Origin: a virus | Length of the DNA: 11,431 bases | Direction: 5' to 3' (one strand) | Virus genome (UHGV): UHGV-1944538 | Shown here: positions 994 through 11,241 of the stretch, piece after piece | Layout of the letters: the number at the start of each line of letters is the position of its first letter | Numbering within the stretch: position 1 is the stretch's first letter | Translations under genes and position numbers: made by a program | The notes under the pieces: generated by a model | Told to the model about the DNA's origin: nothing | The model's input: only the letters and a program-made list of their open reading frames with translations | Databases searched by the model: none

Positions 994-1518
994 TCAGCTA
1001 AAATTCCTGTATCCATATTTACCATGCAATTCCAGTGATGCAGCATCATAGGCTTTTGCAGCTTCTTCTGCTGTATTAAACTGACCCAGATAATGAGATT
1101 TTCCATTACAGCGTATTGTAGCCCAGAACCCCTTGTTATCCACTCTTGGGTGTACTCCCTTGTAACCTGATTTTGTTTTCTTTCTGGGTATCATGTTTGC
1201 CTGATTCTGCTCTTTGGTAACCTCTCGAAGATTGCTAATAGCATTATTTAGCGGGTCACCATCTATATGGTCAATCCATAGTTTAGCTTGTTTACCATGA
1301 TATAGATAGAAAATAACCTGATGCACCTTAAGTATTCTGAACTTACCATTAATCCGACAACCAAAAGCCAGATATTGTCTTGGTTTAGGATTTACAAGTG
1401 AACCCTCGATTTTTACACCTTTTCTAAATAATGTTCCAGATTCAAAATCTGCTGTAATATTTTCATTGATGTATCTTATAACTTCTTCAGGCCATGCCTT
1501 GGTATACCTAGTCACCAT
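994..1518 (-). CDS. HNH-AP2 family homing endonuclease (N-terminal NUMOD4/HNH_3-like domain plus C-terminal AP2 DNA-binding domain)
   Basis: 174-aa ORF. HNH-type motif WIDHIDGDPLNNAISNLREVTKEQN; AP2-type C-terminus GYKGVHPRVDNKGFWATIRCNGKSHYLGQFNTAEEAAKAYDAASLELHGKYGYRNF. AAGGA about 7 nt upstream of ATG on the minus strand. Confidence 0.85.
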   Translation of the reverse strand: MVTRYTKAWPEEVIRYINENITADFESGTLFRKGVKIEGSLVNPKPRQYLAFGCRINGKFRILKVHQVIFYLYHGKQAKLWIDHIDGDPLNNAISNLREVTKEQNQANMIPRKKTKSGYKGVHPRVDNKGFWATIRCNGKSHYLGQFNTAEEAAKAYDAASLELHGKYGYRNFS

Positions 1519-1604: not shown

Positions 1605-2369
1605 AAAACTATTAAGTTCTCGGAAGAAGACTATATAGATTAATGATGCTCTTATTGTAGGAGCATCTATTCCCAACAAGGGAACTACACAGAAACTAGA
1701 GAATATGCTCTGTAACACCTTCACAGTATCTATATCAGGTCAGATTCAGAGGTCTTGATAGAATCTTCAAAGGTACTTGACAGATAACTATGAAGTTGCT
1801 AGGAAGGGATGTTTAACGGGAGGAAAGATACGATATAACCCGAAGGGAGAGTATCATCTTAACAATTATTCTTAAGAGATACCTTGAAAAGACACTTAAC
1901 AGAACCACCAAGAAGAGAGGGAACGATAAGACCCAGAGGTAGTGACCTGTTAAACAGTTCGTTTCAAAGCTCTTAAGAGTCTGTTAAGTAGGGTCATGTG
2001 ACAATCTTACCATTTTGTCAATGCTTTTGTCTTTGACCTAAATCAATAAAATGTATCGTTTGATATGTTTTTAAACAAAATAGTTAAAAATCTTTTTAGA
2101 GGTGCGCTTCGCTTGTGTCACCAATATCATTCTTCCCTGTCTAAGAGGGAAGTTACAGGGCATTTCAAAGCCCTCAATAGGCAAACCGAGGAATACGGAA
2201 AACCGAGGGAAGAAAACTATTGTGATTACCTTGAACAAGGTCTGTAAAGGTCGTTTAAGAGGTCGGTTAAGAAAGGAGCTTCCCTCTCTGGGGTTATCGC
2301 TCTTCTCTCGATTAGTGGATTGATTAAGAAGACCTCTGAAGTTTCTCTGTGAAGGTGCTGAACAGCTAT

Positions 2370-2423
2370 TATATATGGCTAATTACAACTTATTGAAAAA
2401 TAAACATTTTTAGAAATTACTGT
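2370..2423 (+). repeat. 54-bp direct repeat, copy A (TATATATGG..ATTACAACTTATTGAAAAATAA..TTTTAGAAATTACTGT)
   Basis: Aligns without gaps to 2465-2518 at a constant 95-bp offset with about 5 mismatches. Confidence 0.7.
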
Positions 2424-2464
2424 TAAGGTTGCAGAGTTGTCTGTGAAGAGACTTGTCAGTTCTC

Positions 2465-2518
2465 TATATATGGGTGATTACAACTTATTGAAAAATAAGA
2501 ACTTTTAGAAATTACTGT
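2465..2518 (+). repeat. 54-bp direct repeat, copy B
   Basis: See copy A; both lie in the ORF-poor 1725-3111 region. Confidence 0.7.
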
Positions 2519-2827
2519 CAGAGAGGTGAATACTTGATAGATACAGCTTTCCGGTTCTGTCAAGCTATTTTTTAATAGATAGCACAAAGTGCTAAAGACA
2601 CCCCTATACCATCTCGTACAGGGGGTTTTGGAGGGATTAACGGGGGTCTGTATGGTCGTTATCCTTAAGGTCAAGCGTCCATGTACGACCGAACAGTCTA
2701 AAGACAACAAGCACCCTGACGAGGACGTAGCGAAGTAACAGACCTGCGAACAGACCCACACCTCCACCAGCCCACAAATCAGGTGACCCCAATTCCTGAG
2801 GGAGATTTACCATTAAATTTCCTTGTA

Positions 2828-2925
2828 AGACGCTCTCAATCGCATTCTGACACAAAAAAGTACCTGACCTTATAGTTGACCTGAAGAGGACGTTTAACTC
2901 GTTACAGAGCGATTGAAGAGGTCTG
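2828..2925 (+). repeat. Inverted-repeat-bounded unit I (98 bp): 5' block AGACGCTCTCAATCGCATTCT..CAAAAAA, variable middle, 3' block ..CTCGTTACAGAGCGATTGAAGAGGTCTG
   Basis: 5' and 3' blocks are conserved with unit II at 4468-4588; CTCAATCGC (2835-2843) is the reverse complement of GCGATTGAG-type sequence at 2909-2917, with an extended imperfect inverted repeat of about 16 bp. Confidence 0.7.
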
Positions 2926-3031
2926 CGTGCAATGCAATAACCATGTGACCAAATACATGGCCACGCCTTTATATTTTACTCTCCCCATAGGACCATTATA
3001 CCACAGATGTTAATAAAATGTTAAAAAATAC

Positions 3032-3060
3032 TTGACATTAGCCTTTGAAACTGCTAGTAT
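3032..3060 (+). promoter_or_regulatory. Candidate sigma70-type promoter TTGACA-N17-TAGTAT upstream of the 3112 operon
   Basis: TTGACA at 3032-3037, 17-nt spacer, TAGTAT at 3055-3060, followed by TGTATATATGAGTTAACAGA; about 50 nt upstream of ATG 3112. Confidence 0.45.
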
Positions 3061-3111
3061 TGTATATATGAGTTAACAGAATAATAACATCTTATGAGGG
3101 TCAGAATATGA

Positions 3112-3955: not shown

Positions 3956-4170
3956 TGCTATGCGTTACCTTTGAATATCACACGGATAAAATGATTCGCT
4001 ACATCTCCGACCTCCTGATTGAAGGAAACGGATTCGGTGACATCCACAACTCAAAAGATATTTTCATTAAAGCCATTGGCCCAAATGAAGTACTGAAAGC
4101 AGCAGTCAAGCCAGAATGGTTTGAGCGTCACAAGATTGAATTAGGTTATTGGGGTGAGGAGGTTTTATGA
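3955..4170 (+). CDS. Hypothetical small protein, 71 aa
   Basis: Start overlaps the upstream stop (TAATG at 3953-3957); GGGGG just upstream. Confidence 0.6.
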   Translation: MLCVTFEYHTDKMIRYISDLLIEGNGFGDIHNSKDIFIKAIGPNEVLKAAVKPEWFERHKIELGYWGEEVL

Positions 4171-4454
4171 AACCTTGGCATGAAGATGTTAGACGATATT
4201 TTACAGAACACCTTATCTATGATGAATCCAGTGATTCCCTGTGCTGGTCTGATGGAGAGTCAGTCACGATAAATACCGACGACTACGGCAACAAAACATT
4301 TAATATAGGCCGATATACTTTCTACGTGAAATATGTTGTCTGGTTCCTTTATCATGGCTATCAATCCAATAAGCAAATTATCCATCTAAATGGTAACAGA
4401 GCCGATACCAGACCAAAAAATCTTATGCAAGTCCGAGACTTTAAGAGAAATTAG
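4167..4454 (+). CDS. Truncated HNH_3-like protein, 95 aa, paralogous to the N-terminal half of the HNH-AP2 endonuclease but lacking the AP2 domain
   Basis: ATGA overlap with the upstream stop; GAGGAGG RBS. WHEDVRRYFTEHLIYDESSDSLCWS and YVVWFLYHGYQSNKQIIHLNGNRADTRPKNL parallel WPEEVIRYINENITADFESGTLFRK and HQVIFYLYHGKQAKLWIDHIDGDPLNNAISNL in the 994-1518 product. Confidence 0.65.
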   Translation: MKPWHEDVRRYFTEHLIYDESSDSLCWSDGESVTINTDDYGNKTFNIGRYTFYVKYVVWFLYHGYQSNKQIIHLNGNRADTRPKNLMQVRDFKRN

Positions 4455-4467
4455 AAAAACAGCTTCT

Positions 4468-4588
4468 CAGACGCTCTCAATCGCATTCTAACGCAAAAAA
4501 CTATCTTATTTTAGGGTGGGTAATACCACTGTACAGACTACCCCTGAAAAAGACTGTTTAGCTCGTTACAGAGCGATTGAGGAGGTCT
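4468..4588 (+). repeat. Inverted-repeat-bounded unit II (121 bp), homolog of unit I with a longer variable middle
   Basis: 5' block 4468-4500 and 3' block 4551-4588 nearly identical to unit I; it fills the gap between the 4454 stop and the RBS of the 4611 gene. Confidence 0.7.
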
Positions 4589-4610
4589 GGTAAAAAGGAG
4601 ATTTTAAGAA

Positions 4611-4940
4611 ATGAGAGAATTAAACTTCCCGCTACAGATTTTCGTTGATAGCGACACTGCTATGATGGTGCAAAGCTTCACTGATGCAGGTATTAGCATT
4701 GACTTTGACAGGCTGTTAAAGCTAATGGCTGAGAACTCAGAAGCAATTGAAGATTTTATTCAGGAAATTGAAACTGGTGACCCACGTTTTATGTTTCCCG
4801 TTACCGACTCAAACATGAAGCGCCTTATTATTGAGGAAACTAACCGATACAGCGTTAGCCCTGAAAAATATCTCAAGGCGGCTATAGTAATTTTGTACGC
4901 TGACAATGTTTTGGTTACGGATTCGAAGGTGGTGCATTAA
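4611..4940 (+). CDS. Hypothetical protein, 109 aa, acidic
   Basis: AAGGAG at 4595-4600 upstream of ATG 4611; clean ORF. Confidence 0.65.
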   Translation: MRELNFPLQIFVDSDTAMMVQSFTDAGISIDFDRLLKLMAENSEAIEDFIQEIETGDPRFMFPVTDSNMKRLIIEETNRYSVSPEKYLKAAIVILYADNVLVTDSKVVH

Positions 4941-5017
4941 TGGGCTTAATAATTGCTTGGACAGCTTTGGGTTTATTTGTTGGTTGCTGGGTAGGTAACA
5001 CAGTAAATAAGAATTGA
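4940..5017 (+). CDS. Candidate 25-aa single-helix hydrophobic peptide (MGLIIAWTALGLFVGCWVGNTVNKN), translationally coupled to the upstream gene
   Basis: ATG overlaps the upstream TAA; AAGGTGG at 4926-4932, 7 nt before the ATG. Not in the ORF track because of its size. Confidence 0.35.
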   Translation: MGLIIAWTALGLFVGCWVGNTVNKN

Positions 5018-5041: not shown

Positions 5042-5070
5042 TTGACAAATAACCTTGAGCATGACATAAT
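5042..5070 (+). promoter_or_regulatory. Candidate sigma70-type promoter TTGACA-N17-CATAAT
   Basis: TTGACA 5042-5047, 17-nt spacer, CATAAT 5065-5070, followed by TGTATATATAGG as at the 3032 promoter. Confidence 0.45.
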
Positions 5071-5076
5071 TGTATA

Positions 5077-5268
5077 TATAGGAAGAGCAATTTTTCCTAA
5101 AATCATATTTTCAATAATCCGATGGATGGATATTCTGAGTTGGAAAGGTGCAATGCTTTTCGTCATGGCCTTTCAGTTTAGTCTGAGAGGCTATCTCAAA
5201 AAGTCTTTGTTCATTCATTATTGAACCCTTACAGCTTTGCCCTAATCATGAGTTAGGGCGTTTTCTTT
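5077..5268 (+). ncRNA. Candidate small RNA of about 190 nt between promoter 5042-5070 and the intrinsic terminator at 5239-5268; could instead encode a small hydrophobic peptide
   Basis: Promoter and terminator bracket a region with no RBS-preceded ORF; the track ORF 5042-5224 begins at the -35 hexamer itself. An internal 23-codon frame (5152-5223, MLFVMAFQFSLRGYLKKSLFIHY) lacks a good RBS. Confidence 0.3.
5239..5268 (+). terminator. Rho-independent terminator: stem GCCCTAA/TTAGGGC, 7-nt loop, then GTTTTCTTT
   Basis: Perfect 7-bp stem at 5239-5245 and 5253-5259 followed by a T-rich tract. Confidence 0.5.
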
Positions 5269-5337
5269 AAGAGTTTTAAACAGAGCTTTTAAAGAAAGTT
5301 TTTCCTGAAACTTCGTTAACGTTATAAGCAAACCTCC

Positions 5338-5370
5338 AAAGCCCTTCACAGAAACGTTTAGGGCTTTTCT
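5338..5370 (+). terminator. Second, weaker terminator-like hairpin: AAGCCCT ... AGGGCTT then TTCTT
   Basis: 7-bp stem with a 14-nt loop and a T-rich tail; shares the GCCCT..TTAGGGC..TTT pattern with the 5239 hairpin. Confidence 0.3.
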
Positions 5371-5468
5371 TAATAGAGCATCTTTAATAAATCGTTAAGT
5401 CATCTTCTAAGTGTATTGGCGTTGAAGGTGCTCTATTAAGAAATAAACCACACTTAGAGGAAGTTATA

Positions 5469-6179
5469 ATGACAAACGATTTATATATTAACGGTAAAAA
5501 GGTTGATAGCTTCGGTGACTGGTCGCCACAGACTGAACATCCAGCTATCGCTATTCAGCGTCAAGAGCATGACAAGCGCATTGAGCTTGAGCAAGAGCTA
5601 AAGATGTCACCAAAAACAACCATCTTTGTGTCTCCTGAGCCTCAAGAGATGCCTGATATTTGCAAGAGTGAAGCATTATTTAATCTTGAGCGTGAATATT
5701 ACCCACTGCTAAAAGAACAGCGCCTTAGATTAGATGACGCTTACGACAATGTGAAGAACTTTGAAGAGACTGAAAAGCCAACTGATTTTGATATTGAAGT
5801 GGAAATTAGACAAAACCCATTCGTATATTACTCAGTTGAGGATAATGATGGTTTTGGTACAGCAAGAGAGAATATCTCAAAAGTTCTTCAAAACATCCCT
5901 GAAGGATTCCGTTTAATTGATGTCAGACCAGCTTCACGCGGTACAGGTTCATATATTTTACTGTCTGATAAAACAGATGAAGAGATTTGTCAGTTAGCTG
6001 AAAAGAATCTACTTGAGCGTCATAGCAAAAAATTAAACAGATTTAAGCAAGAGCTTGCTAACCAGCTTAGAGCTATGAAGCAACTAATCAGTGACTATGA
6101 AACGCAGAAGAAGGTTGCTATGCAAGCCGATATTGAGCAGCTTACGAAGATTTCTCAGAAATATAGCAAGGCACTTTAA
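5469..6179 (+). CDS. Hypothetical protein, 236 aa, acidic with a predicted coiled-coil C-terminal third
   Basis: GAGGAAG 6 nt upstream of the ATG; long clean ORF; the C-terminus has a heptad-like charged pattern. Confidence 0.7.
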   Translation: MTNDLYINGKKVDSFGDWSPQTEHPAIAIQRQEHDKRIELEQELKMSPKTTIFVSPEPQEMPDICKSEALFNLEREYYPLLKEQRLRLDDAYDNVKNFEETEKPTDFDIEVEIRQNPFVYYSVEDNDGFGTARENISKVLQNIPEGFRLIDVRPASRGTGSYILLSDKTDEEICQLAEKNLLERHSKKLNRFKQELANQLRAMKQLISDYETQKKVAMQADIEQLTKISQKYSKAL

Positions 6180-6201
6180 CTATGAATTAAAGAGGTGATT
6201 A

Positions 6202-6411
6202 ATGTTTGAAGAACGTTTAGAGACTATTCGGTCTGTTTGTGAAAACTTAAAGTTACAAAATAAGCCAACCTTAAGAATTAAAAACAAACGTCAAGTTATC
6301 ACCTCACACAAACCAAAAACACGCAAGATTCCAAAATGGTGTATTGACCGTATCCCTTCTGATGCTCAAATCATAGGTGAAACGGAATTACATTATCTTG
6401 TCAGGCATTAA
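6202..6411 (+). CDS. Hypothetical small basic protein, 69 aa
   Basis: AAGAGGTGA RBS 5 nt upstream; Lys/Arg-rich; followed by a terminator-like hairpin. Confidence 0.6.
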   Translation: MFEERLETIRSVCENLKLQNKPTLRIKNKRQVITSHKPKTRKIPKWCIDRIPSDAQIIGETELHYLVRH

Positions 6412-6463: not shown

Positions 6464-6506
6464 GGGGAGAGATTATCGATATTATTCGGTAGTTTCTCCC
6501 TTTTTT
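6464..6506 (+). terminator. Terminator-like hairpin (GGGAGA ... TCTCCC) followed by TTTTTT
   Basis: 6-bp G/C-rich stem at 6465-6470 and 6495-6500 with a long loop containing ATCGAT, then T6 at 6501-6506, immediately before repeat copy 1. Confidence 0.45.
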
Positions 6507-6513
6507 GTATGTG

Positions 6514-6583
6514 TGCTACGTGAAATCTTCTGAACAGATATACCCACCAAAAATTATTTTTTACGTAGCTCACGCTTAACAGA
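6514..6583 (+). repeat. 70-bp direct repeat, copy 1, containing an 11-bp inverted repeat (GCTACGTGAAA ... TTTTACGTAGC, one mismatch) and a CACGCTTAACAGA tail; lies immediately upstream of the 6599 gene
   Basis: 67 of 70 identity with 8659-8728. Confidence 0.8.
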
Positions 6584-6598
6584 GGTGAAATATGAACA

Positions 6599-8647
6599 AT
6601 GGCACAATTTAAAGTTGATAGTTTTATCGTTGAGCTAGGCTTCAGCGAGAACGTTATTAAGGGCTTGCAAAGAGTTGAAAAGGCAGCTTTGCAGTCAGCA
6701 CAAAGAATTGAACGTAATTTGAATAGAGCGTTTAAGGTCGATACCAAGCAATTTGACAGCAATCTGACAAGTTCTTTGAAGTCAATGGAAGGAAAAATTA
6801 ATAAGACCTTTGACCGTCTGGAAGCTAGAGCAAAAAATACTAAAGCTTTCCAGTTTACCACCAGATTTAATGACACTGTTAATCCTCCAAAACAACCGAG
6901 ACAGCCACGAATTAGCGGAAACAGAGCAATCACAGCAGCTTATTCAGCTAATATGACCAAGCTGAAAGGTCTTAACCCAATTGTCGAGAAATACATTAAG
7001 AGCCAGTTTTACGCATTAAGTAGTAAAGCTGGTCAGATGGATAACACCAAGTTTAATGAAGCCCTTGCTAAACTAAATTCAAGTGTAAGAGAAGCAATCA
7101 CTAAAGCCAGAGGTCATACATCCACCAGCATTAACGGTGACAGAGCAGCTAATAGTCTTGATAGTTTGAGTTCAGCAGCAGTTAAAACAGCAGGTGCATT
7201 TATCAGCTTTCAAGCTGTACTATCCGCTTATCAGCGAGTAATGGAAGTTGGCCTTCAACGTGCATCATCGGAAAGAAGTATTGATTTCGTATTTGATAAA
7301 GATGCAGGCCAAGTAAAAGAGTTCACAAAGTCATTAGCTCAAACAACGGGTTTAGATATCGCTGAACTGCAATCACAGTTTGCTGGTTTTGGTGCTTCAG
7401 CTAAAGAGTCTATGGGTATTCAAGGTTCTGAAGAACTTTTTAAAAGTATGATTGGCTATTCTCGTTTAATGGGTCGAAGTGAAGAAGAGATTAAGCGAGC
7501 ACTGACAGCATTATCACAGATGGCTGGTAAGGGTCAGATTATGGCTGAAGAGCTTAAGGGGCAATTAGCTGAAGCTGTTCCTGGTATGGTTCAGGTATTC
7601 GCTAAAGCAACCGGAAAGACTGAACAGGAATTATTTGATGCCATGAAGAAGGGGGCTTTAAAATCTGCCGATACTCTTCAGAAGGTCACTCAGGAACTGA
7701 ATAGACAAATCACCGCTAAAGGTGGCTGGAAAGCTATTTCAGAAAGTACACAGGCACAGCTAGGGAACCTGAAAAACTCTTGGAATACCACGCTTGATAG
7801 TATCTTCAGAGGTTCTGAAAATGGTCTGCAAGATTTCACACGAAGCCTAACAACGCTTTTAAACGCTCTTGGTGGAAGTGGTAAAACATTAGGTGAAAGT
7901 TTTGGTAGCTTGATGAGCGATATGTCACATGGTGTCGATAACCTGACTGATATTAGTTACAGGGTAAGGGCGTTCTTTGACGAGGTGACATTGGCTTATC
8001 GTGGTTTAACCGATGAACAAAAGAAAGTTGTTGATGCTTTAGGTTCTGGCTTGATTAATAGTTTAAAAGTCTTGGCTGGTGTTATTGCTGTGAATAAAGT
8101 TGTTGGTGTAACCAGAAGTATTTACGGGCTTATGACTGCTATCACAAGATTAGGTCAGGTCGCTGATACTACAGTGGATAACGTGAATAGAAAGAACGGG
8201 AAACCATCAAGGTTTAATCTTGGGAATATGCTATTAGCTGGTAGTGCTATCTATGCAGGTTATGAGAGATTAGCTTCTACGCCTGAACGAATGGAAGCAC
8301 AAGCTAAATTACCAGAGCTGGCTAAAGAGTCTGGACTTAAGCCAGTATTTACTATGGACGATGTGAAAGGTTGGTTTAATAGTGCAGCTATGAATCTTGC
8401 TAACTTCCAGCATCCAGAATTAATCACCATGAGACAAGATGCGGCATTAACGAATACGGATATCCAAAGCCTGAGAGATGAAATTAGTGCTTTGAGCAAA
8501 CGTATTCAGGAGCCTGTGAAAGTTTCACTTGGTGGTGAAGTTGCCATTAAACCAGATGAAACCAGCTTTATGACCTTTAGCAGTAATATCTACGACCAAT
8601 ACGCAGAAGCTACGCTATTAAGTTCATCATTCCCAGAAGATGATTGA
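6599..8647 (+). CDS. 682-aa protein with a tape-measure-type domain (central GKGQIMAEELKGQLAEAVPGMVQVFAKATGKTEQELFDAMKKGALKSADTLQKVTQEL segment) and a coiled-coil-rich N-terminus
   Basis: Long ORF; the central segment resembles, from memory, the conserved domain of siphovirus/lambdoid tape measure proteins. GAGGTG lies 11 nt upstream of the ATG. Domain assignment not verified by search. Confidence 0.75.
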   Translation: MAQFKVDSFIVELGFSENVIKGLQRVEKAALQSAQRIERNLNRAFKVDTKQFDSNLTSSLKSMEGKINKTFDRLEARAKNTKAFQFTTRFNDTVNPPKQPRQPRISGNRAITAAYSANMTKLKGLNPIVEKYIKSQFYALSSKAGQMDNTKFNEALAKLNSSVREAITKARGHTSTSINGDRAANSLDSLSSAAVKTAGAFISFQAVLSAYQRVMEVGLQRASSERSIDFVFDKDAGQVKEFTKSLAQTTGLDIAELQSQFAGFGASAKESMGIQGSEELFKSMIGYSRLMGRSEEEIKRALTALSQMAGKGQIMAEELKGQLAEAVPGMVQVFAKATGKTEQELFDAMKKGALKSADTLQKVTQELNRQITAKGGWKAISESTQAQLGNLKNSWNTTLDSIFRGSENGLQDFTRSLTTLLNALGGSGKTLGESFGSLMSDMSHGVDNLTDISYRVRAFFDEVTLAYRGLTDEQKKVVDALGSGLINSLKVLAGVIAVNKVVGVTRSIYGLMTAITRLGQVADTTVDNVNRKNGKPSRFNLGNMLLAGSAIYAGYERLASTPERMEAQAKLPELAKESGLKPVFTMDDVKGWFNSAAMNLANFQHPELITMRQDAALTNTDIQSLRDEISALSKRIQEPVKVSLGGEVAIKPDETSFMTFSSNIYDQYAEATLLSSSFPEDD

Positions 8648-8658
8648 TAATAGTCGAA

Positions 8659-8728
8659 TGCTACGTGAAATCTCCTGAACGGATATACCCACCAAAAATT
8701 ATTTTTCACGTAGCTCACGCTTAACAGA
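8659..8728 (+). repeat. 70-bp direct repeat, copy 2 (perfect 11-bp inverted arms GCTACGTGAAA / TTTCACGTAGC), immediately after the 6599-8647 gene and upstream of the 8805 gene
   Basis: Near-identical to 6514-6583; the two copies bracket the tape-measure-like gene. Confidence 0.8.
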
Positions 8729-8804
8729 TAAAACACTTATATATCAAAGGCTTGGTTAAAAATGATTAAAATACACTAAGCCTTTGAAATCAAAGGAGAA
8801 TTTA

Positions 8805-9578
8805 ATGATTTACACTAATCAGCTTCGTTACACTGGCAAAGATGGCGTTTACTTCCACTTAAGAGATAATGTAGATGCCTTCTTAACTTTATCAGCAACT
8901 GAAAATATGGAATTTGACAGCCCTATGCAGGTAACTACACAGAACATGCAATCAGGGCAAACCGTCACAGATAATGTGCAAAGAGCACCCAGAACAATCA
9001 CTATTAGCGGTGTCGTTGTAGTTGGCTATGAAGGAAGCTTATTATTAACTCGTCAGGGTCAATTAGTAGAAAACTTCATTGACACTCTTGAAAGCTGGAG
9101 AGACCAGAAGCAAATTATTTCGGTCATCTGTAAAGACGGTATCAAAATTGATGATTCCATTATTACGAGTTTTAAAGCCTCTAAAGATGTTGGTATTTCA
9201 AATGGTCTAAGAGTCCAGCTAACTTTTCAGGAAATTAACTTTAAAGCTATTGTGGGTCAGACTGATATTTCATCTGCGACTGGAAAAGCCGCGACTACTA
9301 ATGATGGTGGTGCTACCAGTAAAAAGAATGCGGGTAACGTGACTACTGAACGCAATAACGCACCTATGTTGCTGTGTCAGGAACTGTACAGCTACTCAGC
9401 ATCTGAGCTATCTGATGAAGCGTTAAAAGCCCGTAGTAATTGCTCTAAAAATGTCACGGTGAAAGATGGTGTAAGCACCTTCTCAGATGCCGCTAATGCG
9501 CAAGCTTCAAAAGTGCTTAAGTCGGGTAATGCTTTACGGAAGTTTAGTGTGAATCCGAATAAGAAGGGCACTTATTGA
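8805..9578 (+). CDS. Hypothetical protein, 257 aa, with a Ser/Thr/Asn/Gly-rich linker ([30 protein letters not shown]); positionally a possible tail-module partner of the upstream gene
   Basis: AGGAG at 8794-8798, 6 nt before ATG 8805; the track's earlier start at 8784 is a TTG without an RBS. No confident domain assignment. Confidence 0.65.
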
Positions 9579-9597: not shown

Positions 9598-11241
9598 CTA
9601 AGCGTCCACCTCTTCCATATCACCAGCAGGATAAATCCTTGTTACTGGTTCACCAAAAATAAGCATATCATCTAGTGACTGCATCTCATCGGTTGCTTCT
9701 TCAAGCGTTAAGGTGTGGTCATCTTTACCATCAAGAGGGAAACCACGAATCATATTTCCATTGTGAAGATATATATCAACCAGCTTTTCATTACCAGAAA
9801 CAACAATCTCTTTCACCAGACGCTTAATGATAATCTGGGCTTCAGTTCTCCCCTCTACAGACTCCATATCAAGACCGCTTAAATCCAAGCTTGATACAGA
9901 TTTTACCCTCGCCTTTTCTCGTGATAACTGAACTATCAGTTCATCTTTTTCTTCCTGCTTAATCCGTAGTGCTTCTTGAATCTGAGTGATGTTAGGAAGC
10001 TGTATCAGCGTCTCAGTGAGTTTTTCCAGTTCACTATCAACGGTGTTTAGTCTGCGTTGTAGCTCATCTAATTTAGCTGTGTCAGTAGCTTCATCGTGTA
10101 GCTGTGACAGTTTGCTGAACAGACGACTACAAAGCTGTGTATCAAGTAACTTTCTGGACACTGTACCGTAGCTACAACGGGACTCCTTATTACCATTGCA
10201 ACGGTAAGTACCTTGATAAACGGGTTTACGTATCCCTGTAGGAGTCATTACAAGCCCACACTTACAACGGATAAGCCCCTTCAGTATGTTCACATATAGC
10301 CAGTGTTCACCGCTGGATGTTTTCCCCTTCCCTGTTTCCTCTAACAGTTGCTGTACAGCGTAAAACTTAGAGTCTGTGACAATCTGAGGATAGAACCCTT
10401 CAATTTCTTCACGTAACACTGTTTTACGGTCTTCTGTAGAAATCTTAGCGGGAAGGTAACCTAATACACTTCGTGAAGTCAGGATGTGTTTAACGCTTAA
10501 TGCTGACCAGTTGCCATCCGGTTTCTTAGTCTTGGATATTCTGACCTTACGCTGATTAATGGTCGGGTAACCTTGTTCGTTTAGCCATTTGCAGATAGCA
10601 AACATCGACATACCAGAAAGACGCTTGTCATAGATGATATTCACCAGTGACGCTTTATCTTCATCAACGATGTAGTGTGAACCGTCTTCTGATAGCTCTA
10701 ACCATCCGGGGGCTTGCTTACCCATAGGCTTCTTAAGTTCTCTTGCAAGCTGTGTTTTATGGTTCCAGACCTGAGCTATACGCTTTTGCTTAACAAGAGA
10801 TTCTTGGTGTGCTCGCTCAGCTATGATGATGTGCTTAATCAACTTCACAGGGTCTGTTAATGCTGATTTGTCGTAGAGTTCACCATCTCCCAGAGTCAGT
10901 ATAGAGACCCCTTTCCTCAGTATCTGCCTGACATCATCTATAGCTGTGTCGATATCAGCCCTACTGAAGCGGTCAAAGTTCTCTACAACAATCAAGGAAC
11001 CTTCTGGAATAGCCTCAGACATAACATTTTCAAACATACGTCTGAAGTCAGAACCTTGATTCTTATGTTGCTGGTGAAAACCAGATTTACCCTTATCAAC
11101 ATATCTGTGAGCAGGAAGAAGGTAATAATCGTTTTTGTGCTTAGAGTAGAAAGCATCAATGAGGTTTGTTTGCCGTCTTAAGGAGTCTCCTGAGTCTTGC
11201 TCTTTAGTACTCCACCTGATGTATGTCACTAGCAGCTTCAT
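9598..11241 (-). CDS. int: Large serine recombinase (serine integrase) of the element
   Basis: 547 aa. N-terminal resolvase-type motif YIRWSTKEQ with a candidate nucleophile Ser; Cys-rich zinc-ribbon-like segment [11 protein letters not shown]...[14 protein letters not shown]; C-terminal coiled coil. Located next to attR and read inward. Confidence 0.9.

Follow-up and report, generated by a model that had tools for sequence, protein, structure and literature searches.

Chimeric tails are assembled by the PLE satellites of Vibrio cholerae, whose helper is the phage ICP1 and which encode TAC, a tape measure protein (TMP) and BhuB (Mathur, Boyd et al., Nature 2026, PMC12987554). They are the only satellites shown to make such tails, and the mechanism is still unknown, as is stated explicitly for the selective incorporation of their own TMP (PMC12987554). 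In PLE11, the TMP of ICP1 is blocked by the 80-aa protein Rta, which has neither homologues nor a predictable fold, and the satellite provides a TMP of its own (PMC12987554). At the level of the capsid, the PLE protein TcaP is 53 aa longer than Sid of P4 and gave no homology or confident fold matches before cryo-EM (PMC10945586). In E. coli, putative satellites have been described for Justusliebigvirus phages (Inny, Muut, Mt1B1_P17; Barth et al. 2023, PMC10055350). Our literature search found no paper linking phage satellites with Felixounavirus.

The stretch of DNA that we analysed (11,431 nucleotides; hereafter the window) appears to be a hitherto undescribed satellite of phages of the Felix O1 type, in the form of an integrative E. 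coli island of about 11 kb which, in its closest relative, lies between ymdF and wrbA. It encodes an integrase, its own TMP and a hub/tube-initiator (TI) protein, most tail genes are absent, and a scan of the large ORFs of the 11.4-kb window found no capsid, portal, terminase, sheath or tube genes. Segments of the TMP and TI genes are of helper origin: the DNA shared with Felixounavirus comprises the 5' end of the TMP gene and positions 8834-9338 of the TI gene and is 93-95% identical (~93% from position 6598 in the former, ~94-95% to many Felixounavirus phages in the latter), and from these sequences the island appears to have exchanged DNA with one specific helper lineage, Felixounavirus. 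The satellite setting assumed by a sequence-only reading of the window is thus supported by the integrase and the helper-derived TMP and TI segments, together with the lack of capsid and terminase genes. Helper-dependent excision, replication and transduction of the island are presumed. An Rfam scan of the window detected no known RNA.

Table 1 Features of the window discussed in the text (positions in nucleotides of the window).
Feature	Position	Strand	Basis or remark
Sigma-70-type promoter TTGACA-17-CATAAT, extended -10 TG	5042..5070	+	11/12 consensus matches
Structured 5' leader, ~390 nt	5077..5468	+	Folding vs shuffles
Terminator-like leader hairpins	5238-5268, 5338-5372	+	First by terminator scan, second read from sequence
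Long leader hairpin	5366-5443	+	Outer pairing extends to p236 ribosome-binding region
p236, acidic 236-aa orphan protein	5469..6179	+	ORF, own Shine-Dalgarno, conservation
p236 conserved regions	aa 1-92 (5469-5744), aa 206-236 (6084-6176)	+	
p236 variable cassette	aa 93-205 (5745-6083)	+	Helical-hairpin tip and small alpha/beta domain
p69, basic 69-aa orphan protein	6202..6411	+	ORF, own RBS
Intrinsic-terminator-like hairpin, 16-bp stem then T run	6464..6510	+	Closes p236-p69 unit
70-nt element, direct-repeat copy 1	6514..6583	+	Upstream of TMP gene; contains GCTACGTGAAA...TTTTTACGTAGC
Tape measure protein (TMP), 682 aa	6599..8647	+	PF20155; phrog_4036 E=1e-82
70-nt element, direct-repeat copy 2	8659..8728	+	Upstream of TI gene; 96% identical to copy 1
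Tube-initiator (TI)/baseplate protein, Dit-like fold	8784..9578	+	PF21821; phrog_3721 E=1e-132
Large serine recombinase (island integrase)	9598..11241	-	PF00239, PF07508, PF13408

A tail-type module of a TMP gene and a Dit-like gene does lie just downstream of a pair of orphan genes, p236 and p69 (Table 1), as had been read from the sequence. The island TMP is 31% identical overall to that of phage garuso, with ~80-85% identity over the first ~45 aa (counted from the alignment). The product of the following gene, whose true start is probably the ATG at 8805, is 77% identical to garuso_119, nearly identical over residues 13-190 and divergent in the C-terminal ~75 aa; on account of its fold and of its place right behind the TMP gene we equate it with Bas63 gp18, described as the "tube initiator" (PMC12609058). 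The helper genes are collinear, in the order TAC (132 aa, pI 4.76), T part (79 aa), TMP (735 aa) and TI (266 aa), and p236 would thus fill the slot where phages keep tape-measure chaperones. With a probability of roughly one in three, we propose that p236, probably together with p69, occupies the chaperone slot as a tail-assembly factor specific to the satellite, which would be a PLE-type satellite of Felix O1-like (Ounavirinae) myophages.

Both p236 and p69 are genuine genes under purifying selection, with pairwise dN/dS values of 0.16-0.39 and 0.04-0.42, respectively. Their ORFs have exactly the outer boundaries and the lengths that the sequence-only reading had given them, p236 with its own Shine-Dalgarno, and p69 is indeed basic (pI 9.93, K+R 15 of 69 residues). 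The acidity attributed to p236 holds for the protein overall (pI 5.09, D+E 43 against K+R 34, net charge ~-9) but not for its last 36 residues, which are net basic, the net acidity being confined to the N-terminal two thirds. The p236 family comprises 3097 clusters at 90% identity, nearly all of 231-250 aa, and the pair is present in 472 of 5426 complete E. coli genomes (~9%), with p236 exclusively chromosomal and at a median of one place per genome; a scan of species-representative genomes yielded one p236 locus, in E. albertii. Among the island loci, the most distant p236 homologues are 30% (Pluralibacter gergoviae) and 24% identical (E. coli UMNK88, at a different integration site). Synteny was assessed in 34 island loci (L001, L003-L008, L009, L010, L011-L034 and L037) out of 37, leaving out two phage loci (L002 and L036) and one with a split TMP (L035). 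All 34 related loci that reach the slot carry p69 after the p236 homologue, and in 31 of the 31 loci extending through TI the p236 homologue is followed in turn by the small basic protein, the TMP and TI; L003, L010 and L034 end inside it. A 138-aa gene inserted between p236 and p69 in L011-L013 was considered as a TAC candidate and rejected, no similarity having been found. Two observations favor a tail-assembly factor: (i) the TMP gene comes directly after the pair, both in the window and in every related locus, and (ii) no TAC is recognisable in the island (Pfam, PHROGs, NCBIfam), and its TMP shares no more than 31% identity with that of the helper.

Nearly all members of the p236 family are named "transposase" at NCBI, and by that name p236 would be a transposase or another recombination protein, for example the directionality factor of the serine integrase, which we regard as very improbable. 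No transposase, integrase, HTH or nuclease domain was detected (Pfam, NCBIfam, E<=0.1), none of the 120 relatives listed carries a precomputed Pfam domain, the gene is not flanked by terminal inverted repeats, and it keeps a fixed place within the island with no scattered copies; the transposase assignment was rejected for want of a supporting domain. Islands that share their p236 and p69 alleles have integrases of three types (99%, ~35% and ~28% identical to that of the window), which argues against a cognate directionality factor, a role that was also rejected, as p236 is not co-inherited with a specific integrase lineage. The label, borne by thousands of entries with no supporting domain, hides the island from surveys of satellites and defence islands.

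The TAC and T genes that occupy this slot in the helper have a TTTTTTC slippery site and overlapping frames, both of which are absent in p236-p69. The p69 frame is shut by a TGA at 6196-6198, 3 nt ahead of the p69 ATG, so that p69 cannot be a frameshift extension of p236; since it also has an independent RBS, we rejected a frameshifted G/GT chaperone. Furthermore, p69 is basic whereas the helper T part is acidic, and their direct comparison showed no similarity. The p236 family gave a probability of 0.1% with the helper TAC in hhalign; the helper TAC itself matches PF21822 at 1.2e-19. Direct comparisons of p236 with the TAC and with the protease-scaffold of the helper gave nothing beyond a 7-residue motif. 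That motif, INGKKVD in p236 (residues 7-13) and INGKKVN in the helper TAC (residues 8-14), stands at the same offset, at the site from which the helper TAC matches TAC_15 of Pfam and where the p236 model places a beta-hairpin, and is a weak point in favor of a tail-assembly factor. Against this reading stand the lack of a TAC family match and the size of p236, ~2x that usual for a TAC.

Wider searches left p236 an orphan. Neither p236 nor p69 gave anything meaningful against Pfam, PHROGs, NCBIfam and PADLOC (E<=0.1 for Pfam, PHROGs and NCBIfam). In tblastn against 50,697 phage records p236 had no match at E<=0.01, and at E<=10 its N-terminal 100 aa returned unrelated chance matches only. A PDB sequence profile search (E<=10) returned ribosomal protein uL16 alone, although Sid and TcaP should have been among the deposited procapsid chains searched, and Foldseek against PDB and BFVD gave nothing below E=0.08, with TM<=0.29 for the leading PDB matches. 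HMMER over 1.84 billion representatives retrieved, besides one repeat protein (DGDGFG...IPxGF motif), only ~5 full-length distant relatives, and none of these sequences is annotated. The comparison with known scaffolds, to which p236 had been likened, thus came out on neither side: there was no scaffold match, and no unrelated function was assigned either. The heptad-like pattern claimed for the C-terminal third was not supported statistically, as hydrophobic a/d occupancy in the best single register is 0.53-0.64 and 24-46% of shuffles reach the same value, so that a canonical continuous coiled coil is not shown. In the AlphaFold2 model a long helix (residues 170-218, pLDDT ~86-96) packs onto helix 66-101; p236 is thereby predicted to be elongated, the two helices making a hairpin stalk with an alpha/beta domain (106-166) at its tip and the conserved N- and C-terminal ends at its base. 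Between these ends, the cassette exists in three or more anciently diverged types (dS>1).

Allele comparisons bear on the partner of p236. TMPs of 682-726 aa, with identities of 49-87% to that of the window, accompany one and the same p236 allele (P0021), and an identical allele also occurs with very different replication modules. Taken with the three integrase types, this suggests that the partner of p236 probably lies outside the island, in the helper or the host. In a covariation test of 29 islands, r was about 0 for p236 with TMP residues 191-520, the TMP C-terminus and the TI C-terminus, and the test rejected the TMP body, the TI C-terminus and the integrase as partners; if p236 were a chaperone dedicated to the TMP body, covariation with that region would be expected. 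There is a weak association between p236 cassette and TMP N-terminal types (Mantel r 0.50-0.55; p<=0.005 once the outlier is left out), cassette type C accompanying TMP-N type B in three of four islands and in none of 24 others. It speaks for a tail-assembly factor, but may simply be due to linkage or a shared helper lineage.

An external partner would also suit a capsid-size-redirecting or scaffolding protein that binds the helper coat, either externally like P4 Sid and PLE TcaP or internally like SaPI CpmB, so that capsids become small enough to suit the ~11-kb island and to shut out the ~86-kb genome of the helper. At 11.4 kb the island is about one eighth of the 85.8-kb helper genome, and satellites of such relative size usually remodel capsids (PMC10945586). 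In addition, p236 is found only in these islands, is helical, elongated and in the size range of Sid, and varies independently of the island TMP body, TI and integrase; besides the replication-module proteins, which are swapped as cassettes, no other large conserved core gene has an unknown function. Like Sid (244 aa) and TcaP, p236 is a satellite-encoded, elongated sequence orphan of about 240-300 aa. In contrast to them, it lies beside tail and not capsid genes, glued to the tail module, and it has no detectable sequence or structural similarity to them or to any other scaffold. The protease-scaffold fusion of the helper has in its C-terminal tail a weak motif, Q[RK]K[LVI]A[LM]Q, that also occurs in p236, but with 6 of 15 identical residues and an hhalign E of 0.25 the resemblance is at chance level, and the C-terminal 70 aa of p236 gave only chance matches in tblastn (E<=10), none of them in Ounavirinae. 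Moreover, the island could be packaged as concatemers into full-size heads, as PICMIs are. Altogether, we consider a capsid role a live, though less likely, alternative.

The variable cassette between conserved ends is the pattern expected of an arms-race interface, and p236, p69 or both could be a helper-interference or defence factor that blocks a helper protein, with the divergent island TMP and TI escaping it. PLE11 Rta provides a precedent for this, and p69 is about the size of Rta. However, Rta is accessory to one PLE variant and encoded outside the tail cluster, whereas p236-p69 is core in every island examined, and dN/dS below 0.4 throughout shows no positive selection at this resolution. 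Furthermore, since the island TMP N-terminus is nearly identical to the helper's, a blocker aimed at that segment would also strike the island's own TMP. Interference is, for these reasons, distinctly unlikely in our view.

The control signals around the pair suggest conditional expression. The promoter at 5042 is the probable start of the p236-p69 transcript, judging from its sequence: in 12 islands of the E. coli type that differ in the sequence around it, the -35 hexamer shows no change and the -10 (CATAAT) is conserved, with substitutions in the spacer. The leader that follows folds with an MFE of -128.6 kcal/mol, against -82.2 +/- 4.4 for shuffles (z -10.5), and 8 of 27 pairs survive changes on both sides between two leader types. 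The spacer between p69 and the TMP gene also folds (z = -5.2). Promoter, two terminator-like hairpins, covarying RBS hairpin and the terminator after p69 together indicate conditional expression, in favor of a tail-assembly factor; the terminator-like hairpins that bracket p236-p69, with the 70-nt element present only downstream, past the terminator, count against it. In lambda-type late operons, a constitutive promoter gives a short, terminated leader RNA that is extended by antitermination. The island resembles this arrangement in its strong conserved promoter, the terminator-like hairpins within ~200-300 nt and the morphogenesis genes beyond, but no Q-like antiterminator or qut-like site was identified and the likeness is architectural only.

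This location, directly upstream of TMP and TI and with its own control region, would also be compatible with a regulatory pair that switches on TMP/TI or modulates helper late transcription, for example via the 70-nt element. The small, very basic p69 could bind nucleic acid, and an island-specific sequence, TTTYACGTAGC, stands ~35-40 nt ahead of the TMP and/or TI start in most islands, the distant L009 included, is absent from the helper structural region, and has no known binder identified in the window. Nevertheless, neither protein has a recognisable DNA- or RNA-binding domain (Pfam, NCBIfam), p236, an acidic protein, has the build of a structural or adaptor protein, and the element differs among islands sharing p236-p69 alleles. 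We consequently see a regulatory role as improbable.

For the timing of expression, the binding partners of p236 and the function of the pair, we infer the following model of a tail-assembly factor. The pair would act as a conserved, separately controlled two-gene unit heading a partial tail module of TMP and TI. In the uninfected cell the 5042 promoter would fire and transcripts would halt at the leader terminators, which would be read through upon helper infection. p236, probably with the basic p69, would then bind a helper tail-initiation component via its variable tip and aid the loading of the island TMP and TI onto the helper baseplate hub. The satellite would thereby obtain chimeric tails, and the helper would bear the cost. 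It is tempting to go further and see in the pair a new morphogenesis factor unrelated to known chaperones and scaffolds, responsible for "selective incorporation" of TMP/TI or representing a third invention of a capsid-size scaffold, in an undescribed satellite family of Felix O1-type phages; we hold this to be possible, yet doubtful.

Compared with the helper TAC (Phage_TAC_15, PF21822, garuso_116/117; gpG/gpGT), p236 is likewise acidic, is followed by a small second ORF before the TMP gene and has the N-terminal INGKKV(D/N). It differs from gpG/gpGT in giving no profile or fold match to them in the searches above, in being twice the size, in having no slippery site or overlapping frame, in its basic, independently translated small ORF, and in not covarying with the TMP body. 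The E. coli islands of Barth et al. resemble the one described here in being chromosomal, in carrying a TMP and a baseplate component with most tail genes missing, in the serine recombinase that some of them possess, and in helper-satellite sequence exchange. They differ in their presumed helpers, which belong to a different phage subfamily, and in carrying RepA_N initiators, major capsid and decoration proteins and mostly tyrosine integrases by tRNAs; no RepA_N initiator, major capsid, decoration protein or tyrosine integrase next to a tRNA was found in the window (Pfam, PHROGs).

The typing of Salmonella and E. coli, their biocontrol and therapy make wide use of Felix O1-type phages, and if the tails of these phages are hijacked or sabotaged by a common chromosomal element, host range and treatment outcome would be affected. 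Among known systems, PLE islands also have a large serine recombinase; the present island shares with them this type of integrative element and, presumably, the parasitism of a virulent myophage. Both encode their own TMP and a baseplate hub/tube initiator with few other tail genes, and in both the satellite TMP is shorter than that of the helper (682 against 735 aa in the present case; in PLE11 the difference is 95 aa). Differences exist as well: hosts and helper lineages are unrelated, the present island is known from its genes alone, and PLE proteins are 20-41% identical to those of ICP1, whereas the N-terminus of the island TMP and the N-domain of its TI are nearly the same as in the helper. 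A PLE satellite that has a TMP of its own also comes with its own chaperone, a recognisable TAC (PDB 5IR0, HK97-like), and in that slot the island has p236-p69. An E. coli counterpart with a conserved orphan pair in the chaperone slot would make the question of how chimeric tails are built testable, in a tractable host and with a solved helper structure (Bas63).

The sequence-only reading described an acidic 236-aa product with a heptad-like C-terminal third, encoded with a small basic protein just upstream of a tail-type module, and this observation was largely correct. The ORF positions, pI and charge confirmed an acidic p236 (pI 5.09, net charge about -9) followed by a basic p69 (pI 9.93; Lys plus Arg, 15 of 69 residues), and the genes of a tape measure protein (TMP) and a Dit-like protein, a putative tube initiator (TI), lie directly downstream. 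In the segment where heptads were claimed, AlphaFold2 placed a long, confident helix, but the periodicity itself failed a shuffle test: hydrophobic a/d occupancy in the best single register was 53-64%, a value matched by 24-46% of shuffles. Both p236 and p69 are real genes, with pairwise dN/dS values of 0.16-0.39 and 0.04-0.42, and with 3097 (nearly all of 231-250 aa) and 109 relatives at the 90% clustering level, respectively. As a TGA three bases before the p69 ATG closes the p69 frame, a frameshift joining the two products is impossible.

Features of the island and of the predicted p236 model (window positions unless residues are stated)
Feature	Position	Strand	Details
HNH-AP2 homing-endonuclease-like gene	994-1518	-	phrog_99, E=3e-46
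Short HNH protein	4167-4454	+	95 aa
Near-consensus sigma-70 promoter	5042-5070		11/12 matches, extended -10 TG
Terminator-like hairpins	5238-5268; 5338-5372		downstream of promoter
Long hairpin	5366-5443		after terminator-like hairpins; outer pairing reaches p236 ribosome-binding region
p236	5469-6179	+	ORF, 236 aa, own Shine-Dalgarno sequence
p69	6202-6411	+	ORF, 69 aa, own Shine-Dalgarno sequence
Strong terminator-like hairpin	6464-6501		3' of p69
70-nt element, two direct-repeat copies	6514-6583; 8659-8728		96% identical; upstream of TMP and TI
TMP	6599-8647		682 aa; PF20155; phrog_4036, E=1e-82
Dit-like protein	8784-9578		264 aa; PF21821; phrog_3721, E=1e-132
Large serine recombinase	9598-11241	opposite to p236/p69	downstream of Dit-like gene
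Short beta-hairpin	p236 residues 5-12		predicted
Helix	p236 residues 25-45		predicted
Disordered linker	p236 residues 47-58		predicted
Long helix	p236 residues 66-101		predicted
Small alpha/beta domain	p236 residues 106-166		predicted
Second long helix	p236 residues 170-218		predicted; then short helices to C-terminus

The nearest relative of the window is a chromosomal island of E. coli ES5, between ymdF and wrbA (coverage 96%, identity 91.6%). Among 50,697 phage records, close DNA matches were confined to two stretches, the initial ~100 nt of the TMP gene and, in the Dit-like gene, positions 8834-9338; each is 93-95% identical to DNA of many phages of the genus Felixounavirus (Felix O1-like), the presumed helpers. 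When compared with phage garuso, the island TMP shows 31% protein identity overall and about 80-85% (manual count from the alignment) over its first ~45 residues, while the Dit-like protein is nearly identical in residues 13-190 and divergent in its last ~75. In the Felixounavirus Bas63, whose structure was solved by cryo-EM, the tube initiator is gp18, encoded after the TMP gene; its fold is tube-like and its C-terminal extension of ~100 aa passes through the baseplate, and the C-terminal 25 residues of the TMP touch the hub and puncture apparatus (PMC12609058). The identity pattern and this structure together indicate that the helper-facing ends of the island TMP and TI were kept helper-like; judged by alignment, the island-specific parts are the TMP body, the TMP C-terminus and the TI extension. 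Pfam and PHROGs searches with the large ORFs of the window revealed no gene for a capsid, portal, terminase, sheath or tube protein. Within the island family, the TMP gene also varies more than any other (6599-8647 against L001-L034), with lengths of 680-726 aa and a mean pairwise identity of 0.38 in the C-terminal 160 aa; it reshuffles independently of the neighbouring p236-p69 unit, and only its first ~50 residues remain helper-like.

Gene order was compared in 34 related island loci (L001, L003-L034 and L037; L035, with a split TMP, was left out). The order p109-like gene (p109 being the 109-aa gene upstream of p236), p236 homologue, small basic protein, TMP, TI, integrase was found in 31/31 loci extending through TI, and the remaining three (L003, L010, L034) end within it. 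The p236 homologues of a Pluralibacter gergoviae island and of the E. coli UMNK88 island adjoining tonB are 30% and 24% identical, respectively. A 138-aa orphan gene, with no Pfam match and no similarity to the helper chaperone, separates the p236 and p69 homologues in L011-L013 (5720-6136 in L011); this slot therefore tolerates insertions. Of 5426 complete E. coli genomes, 472 contain DNA of the pair, in all cases on the chromosome and at no more than three places per genome; E. albertii was the sole match in the species-representative genome set, and among 1.84 billion representative proteins a full HMMER scan gave only about five distant full-length p236 relatives. The family thus has a narrow range, in essence Enterobacteriaceae, and all loci examined place its members inside the same island type. 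Same-core islands (L001, L009, L014-L034, L037) occupy different chromosomal sites (ymdF-wrbA; beside tonB in UMNK88). Their integrases fall into at least three large-serine-recombinase types, and at the far end many of these islands also encode a small resolvase and a Dam-like methyltransferase. The NCBI label "transposase" on nearly all family entries (e.g. WP_268086200.1) is unsupported, with no Pfam domain on any of the 120 relatives listed and no NCBIfam match, and seems to have spread by similarity.

Since no function can be assigned to p236 by homology, the argument rests on context. We rank first, at a probability of roughly one in three, that p236, with p69, would be a satellite-specific tail-assembly factor in the slot of the tail assembly chaperone (TAC), because synteny with TMP and TI is strict down to 24% identity, the island order is collinear with TAC, T, TMP, TI of the helper, the island has no recognisable chaperone and the PLE satellites provide a precedent. 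Membership tests did not place p236 among chaperones. The helper chaperone matches Pfam Phage_TAC_15 at 1.2e-19, and hhalign gave it a probability of 0.1% against the p236 family; the sole trace of similarity is INGKKVD (p236 residues 7-13) against INGKKVN (8-14), which is not a recent recombination relic because the DNA there differs at synonymous sites. The better p236 model, with a mean pLDDT of 80.5, came from an alignment of 29 sequences, some of them relatives at 27-28% identity, and its predicted architecture is new. Neither HK97 or PLE1 tail chaperones nor P4 Sid or PLE TcaP were among the p236 matches in PDB sequence-profile and Foldseek searches. A capsid-size scaffold, proposed by the sequence-only reading on the analogy of P4 Sid, is nevertheless a close rival, if a doubtful one: an element of 11 kb that rides a phage of 86 kb would presumably require one, among the conserved orphans only p236 has a suitable size and shape, and homology searches revealed just as little about TcaP. 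The sequence-based tests neither support nor refute this reading. Residues 120-150 of p236 (5826-5918) carry the motif YYxxxDNDGFGTxxExxxxVLxxIPEGFRLI, resembling the DxDGDGFGT...IPxGF repeat of the 363-aa protein P0137 (full HMMER scan; E=4e-5, three repeats), whose unit we take to be like the "putative metal-binding" MopE-type motif, lacking MopE-type cysteines.

Between the p109-like gene and p236 lie ~530 nt that are conserved and, except for a small ORF at the start, non-coding. This 25-codon ORF (4940-5017, +), whose ATG overlaps the 109-aa gene's stop codon, encodes the hydrophobic peptide MGLIIAWTALGLFVGCWVGNTVNKN. Of 13 islands checked, 12 have it, as a 25-aa or a 21-aa type, most changes being conservative; the product could be a small membrane peptide, perhaps lysis- or toxin-like. 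The -35 hexamer of the promoter is invariant and its -10 region conserved in 12 islands. Folding of the leader RNA reached -128.6 kcal/mol, compared with -82.2 +/- 4.4 for shuffles (z -10.5), and 8 of the 27 pairs of the long hairpin are kept via double changes between two leader types. The 70-nt element contains GCTACGTGAAA...TTTTTACGTAGC, with partial copies near 456-492 and 682-707, and TTTYACGTAGC stands about 35-40 nt before the TMP and TI start codons in most related islands, including the 30%-identity relative. Not found upstream of p236-p69, and absent from the helper structural region and phage databases, the element is a candidate island-specific late promoter or operator. Given the control signals of the pair and this element only before TMP and TI, p236-p69 is a separately expressed unit; its expression is probably conditional, and we infer read-through of the leader terminators on infection. 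That the two genes are a regulatory pair is quite improbable. Elsewhere, two direct-repeat pairs (2822-2925 and 4463-4589; 51 nt, 82% identity, and 34 nt, 94%) upstream of the 184-aa and 109-aa genes are probably a shared promoter or operator of two early units. The ORF-poor 1.4-kb stretch at 1725-3111, a candidate origin of replication or regulatory region, holds two 54-nt direct repeats (2370-2423 and 2465-2518) that are 91% identical and lie 95 nt apart; the module downstream of this stretch (184, 93 and 71 aa plus short HNH) is swapped as a block in related islands, the replacement having a 310-329-aa HTH_36 protein. HNH-type genes like the two of the island are abundant in Felix O1-type phages, and ICP1 satellites use related nucleases against their helper.

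In E. coli-type islands, p236 residues 1-92 and 206-236 are conserved, and residues 93-205, which in the predicted model form the alpha/beta domain and the hairpin tip, exist as three or more cassettes that diverged long ago (dS>1 between types). Allele covariation was analyzed segment by segment in 29 distinct islands. The identical p236 allele P0021 is paired with TMPs of 682-726 aa (49-87% identical to the window TMP), with two different replication-type modules and with three integrase types (99%, ~35% and ~28% identical to the window integrase), the last of which rules out p236 as an integrase directionality factor. Across the 29 islands, p236 did not covary (r about 0) with TMP residues 191-520 or with the C-terminus of either TMP or TI; with the N-terminal 50 residues of the TMP it covaried (r 0.50-0.55, p<=0.005), and cassette type C was paired with TMP-N type B, best matched (63%) by Ounavirinae phages of Hafnia, in 3/4 islands versus 0/24 others. 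This association may come from linkage to the nearby TMP gene start. As sequence comparisons, the allele data argue against a chaperone tailored to the TMP body and suggest that whatever the variable tip is matched to lies outside the island, the simplest candidate being a helper lineage. An Rta-like inhibitor of the helper is an unlikely role for p236 and/or p69. Three points weigh against the tail-assembly factor itself: p236 failed the chaperone membership tests, the pair forms a transcription unit of its own, and p236 does not covary with the TMP body.

Altogether, p236-p69 is a core, island-specific, tightly controlled unit with cassette-type variation, and what this analysis adds is such a controlled pair, with a new predicted architecture and an unsupported database name, in a putative satellite of PLE-like type. 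The island apparently represents an undescribed PLE-like satellite type of Felix O1-like phages; no paper linking satellites with Felixounavirus was found among those searched. The PLE satellites of Vibrio cholerae encode TAC, TMP and BhuB and, by selective incorporation, build chimeric tails that include parts of ICP1 (PMC12987554). Another putative E. coli satellite family with TMP and baseplate genes, whose presumed helpers are Justusliebigvirus phages, differs from the island in carrying RepA_N, capsid and decoration genes (PMC10055350). In contrast, the gene layout of the island is that of PLE: its own TMP and baseplate-type protein, with few other tail genes.
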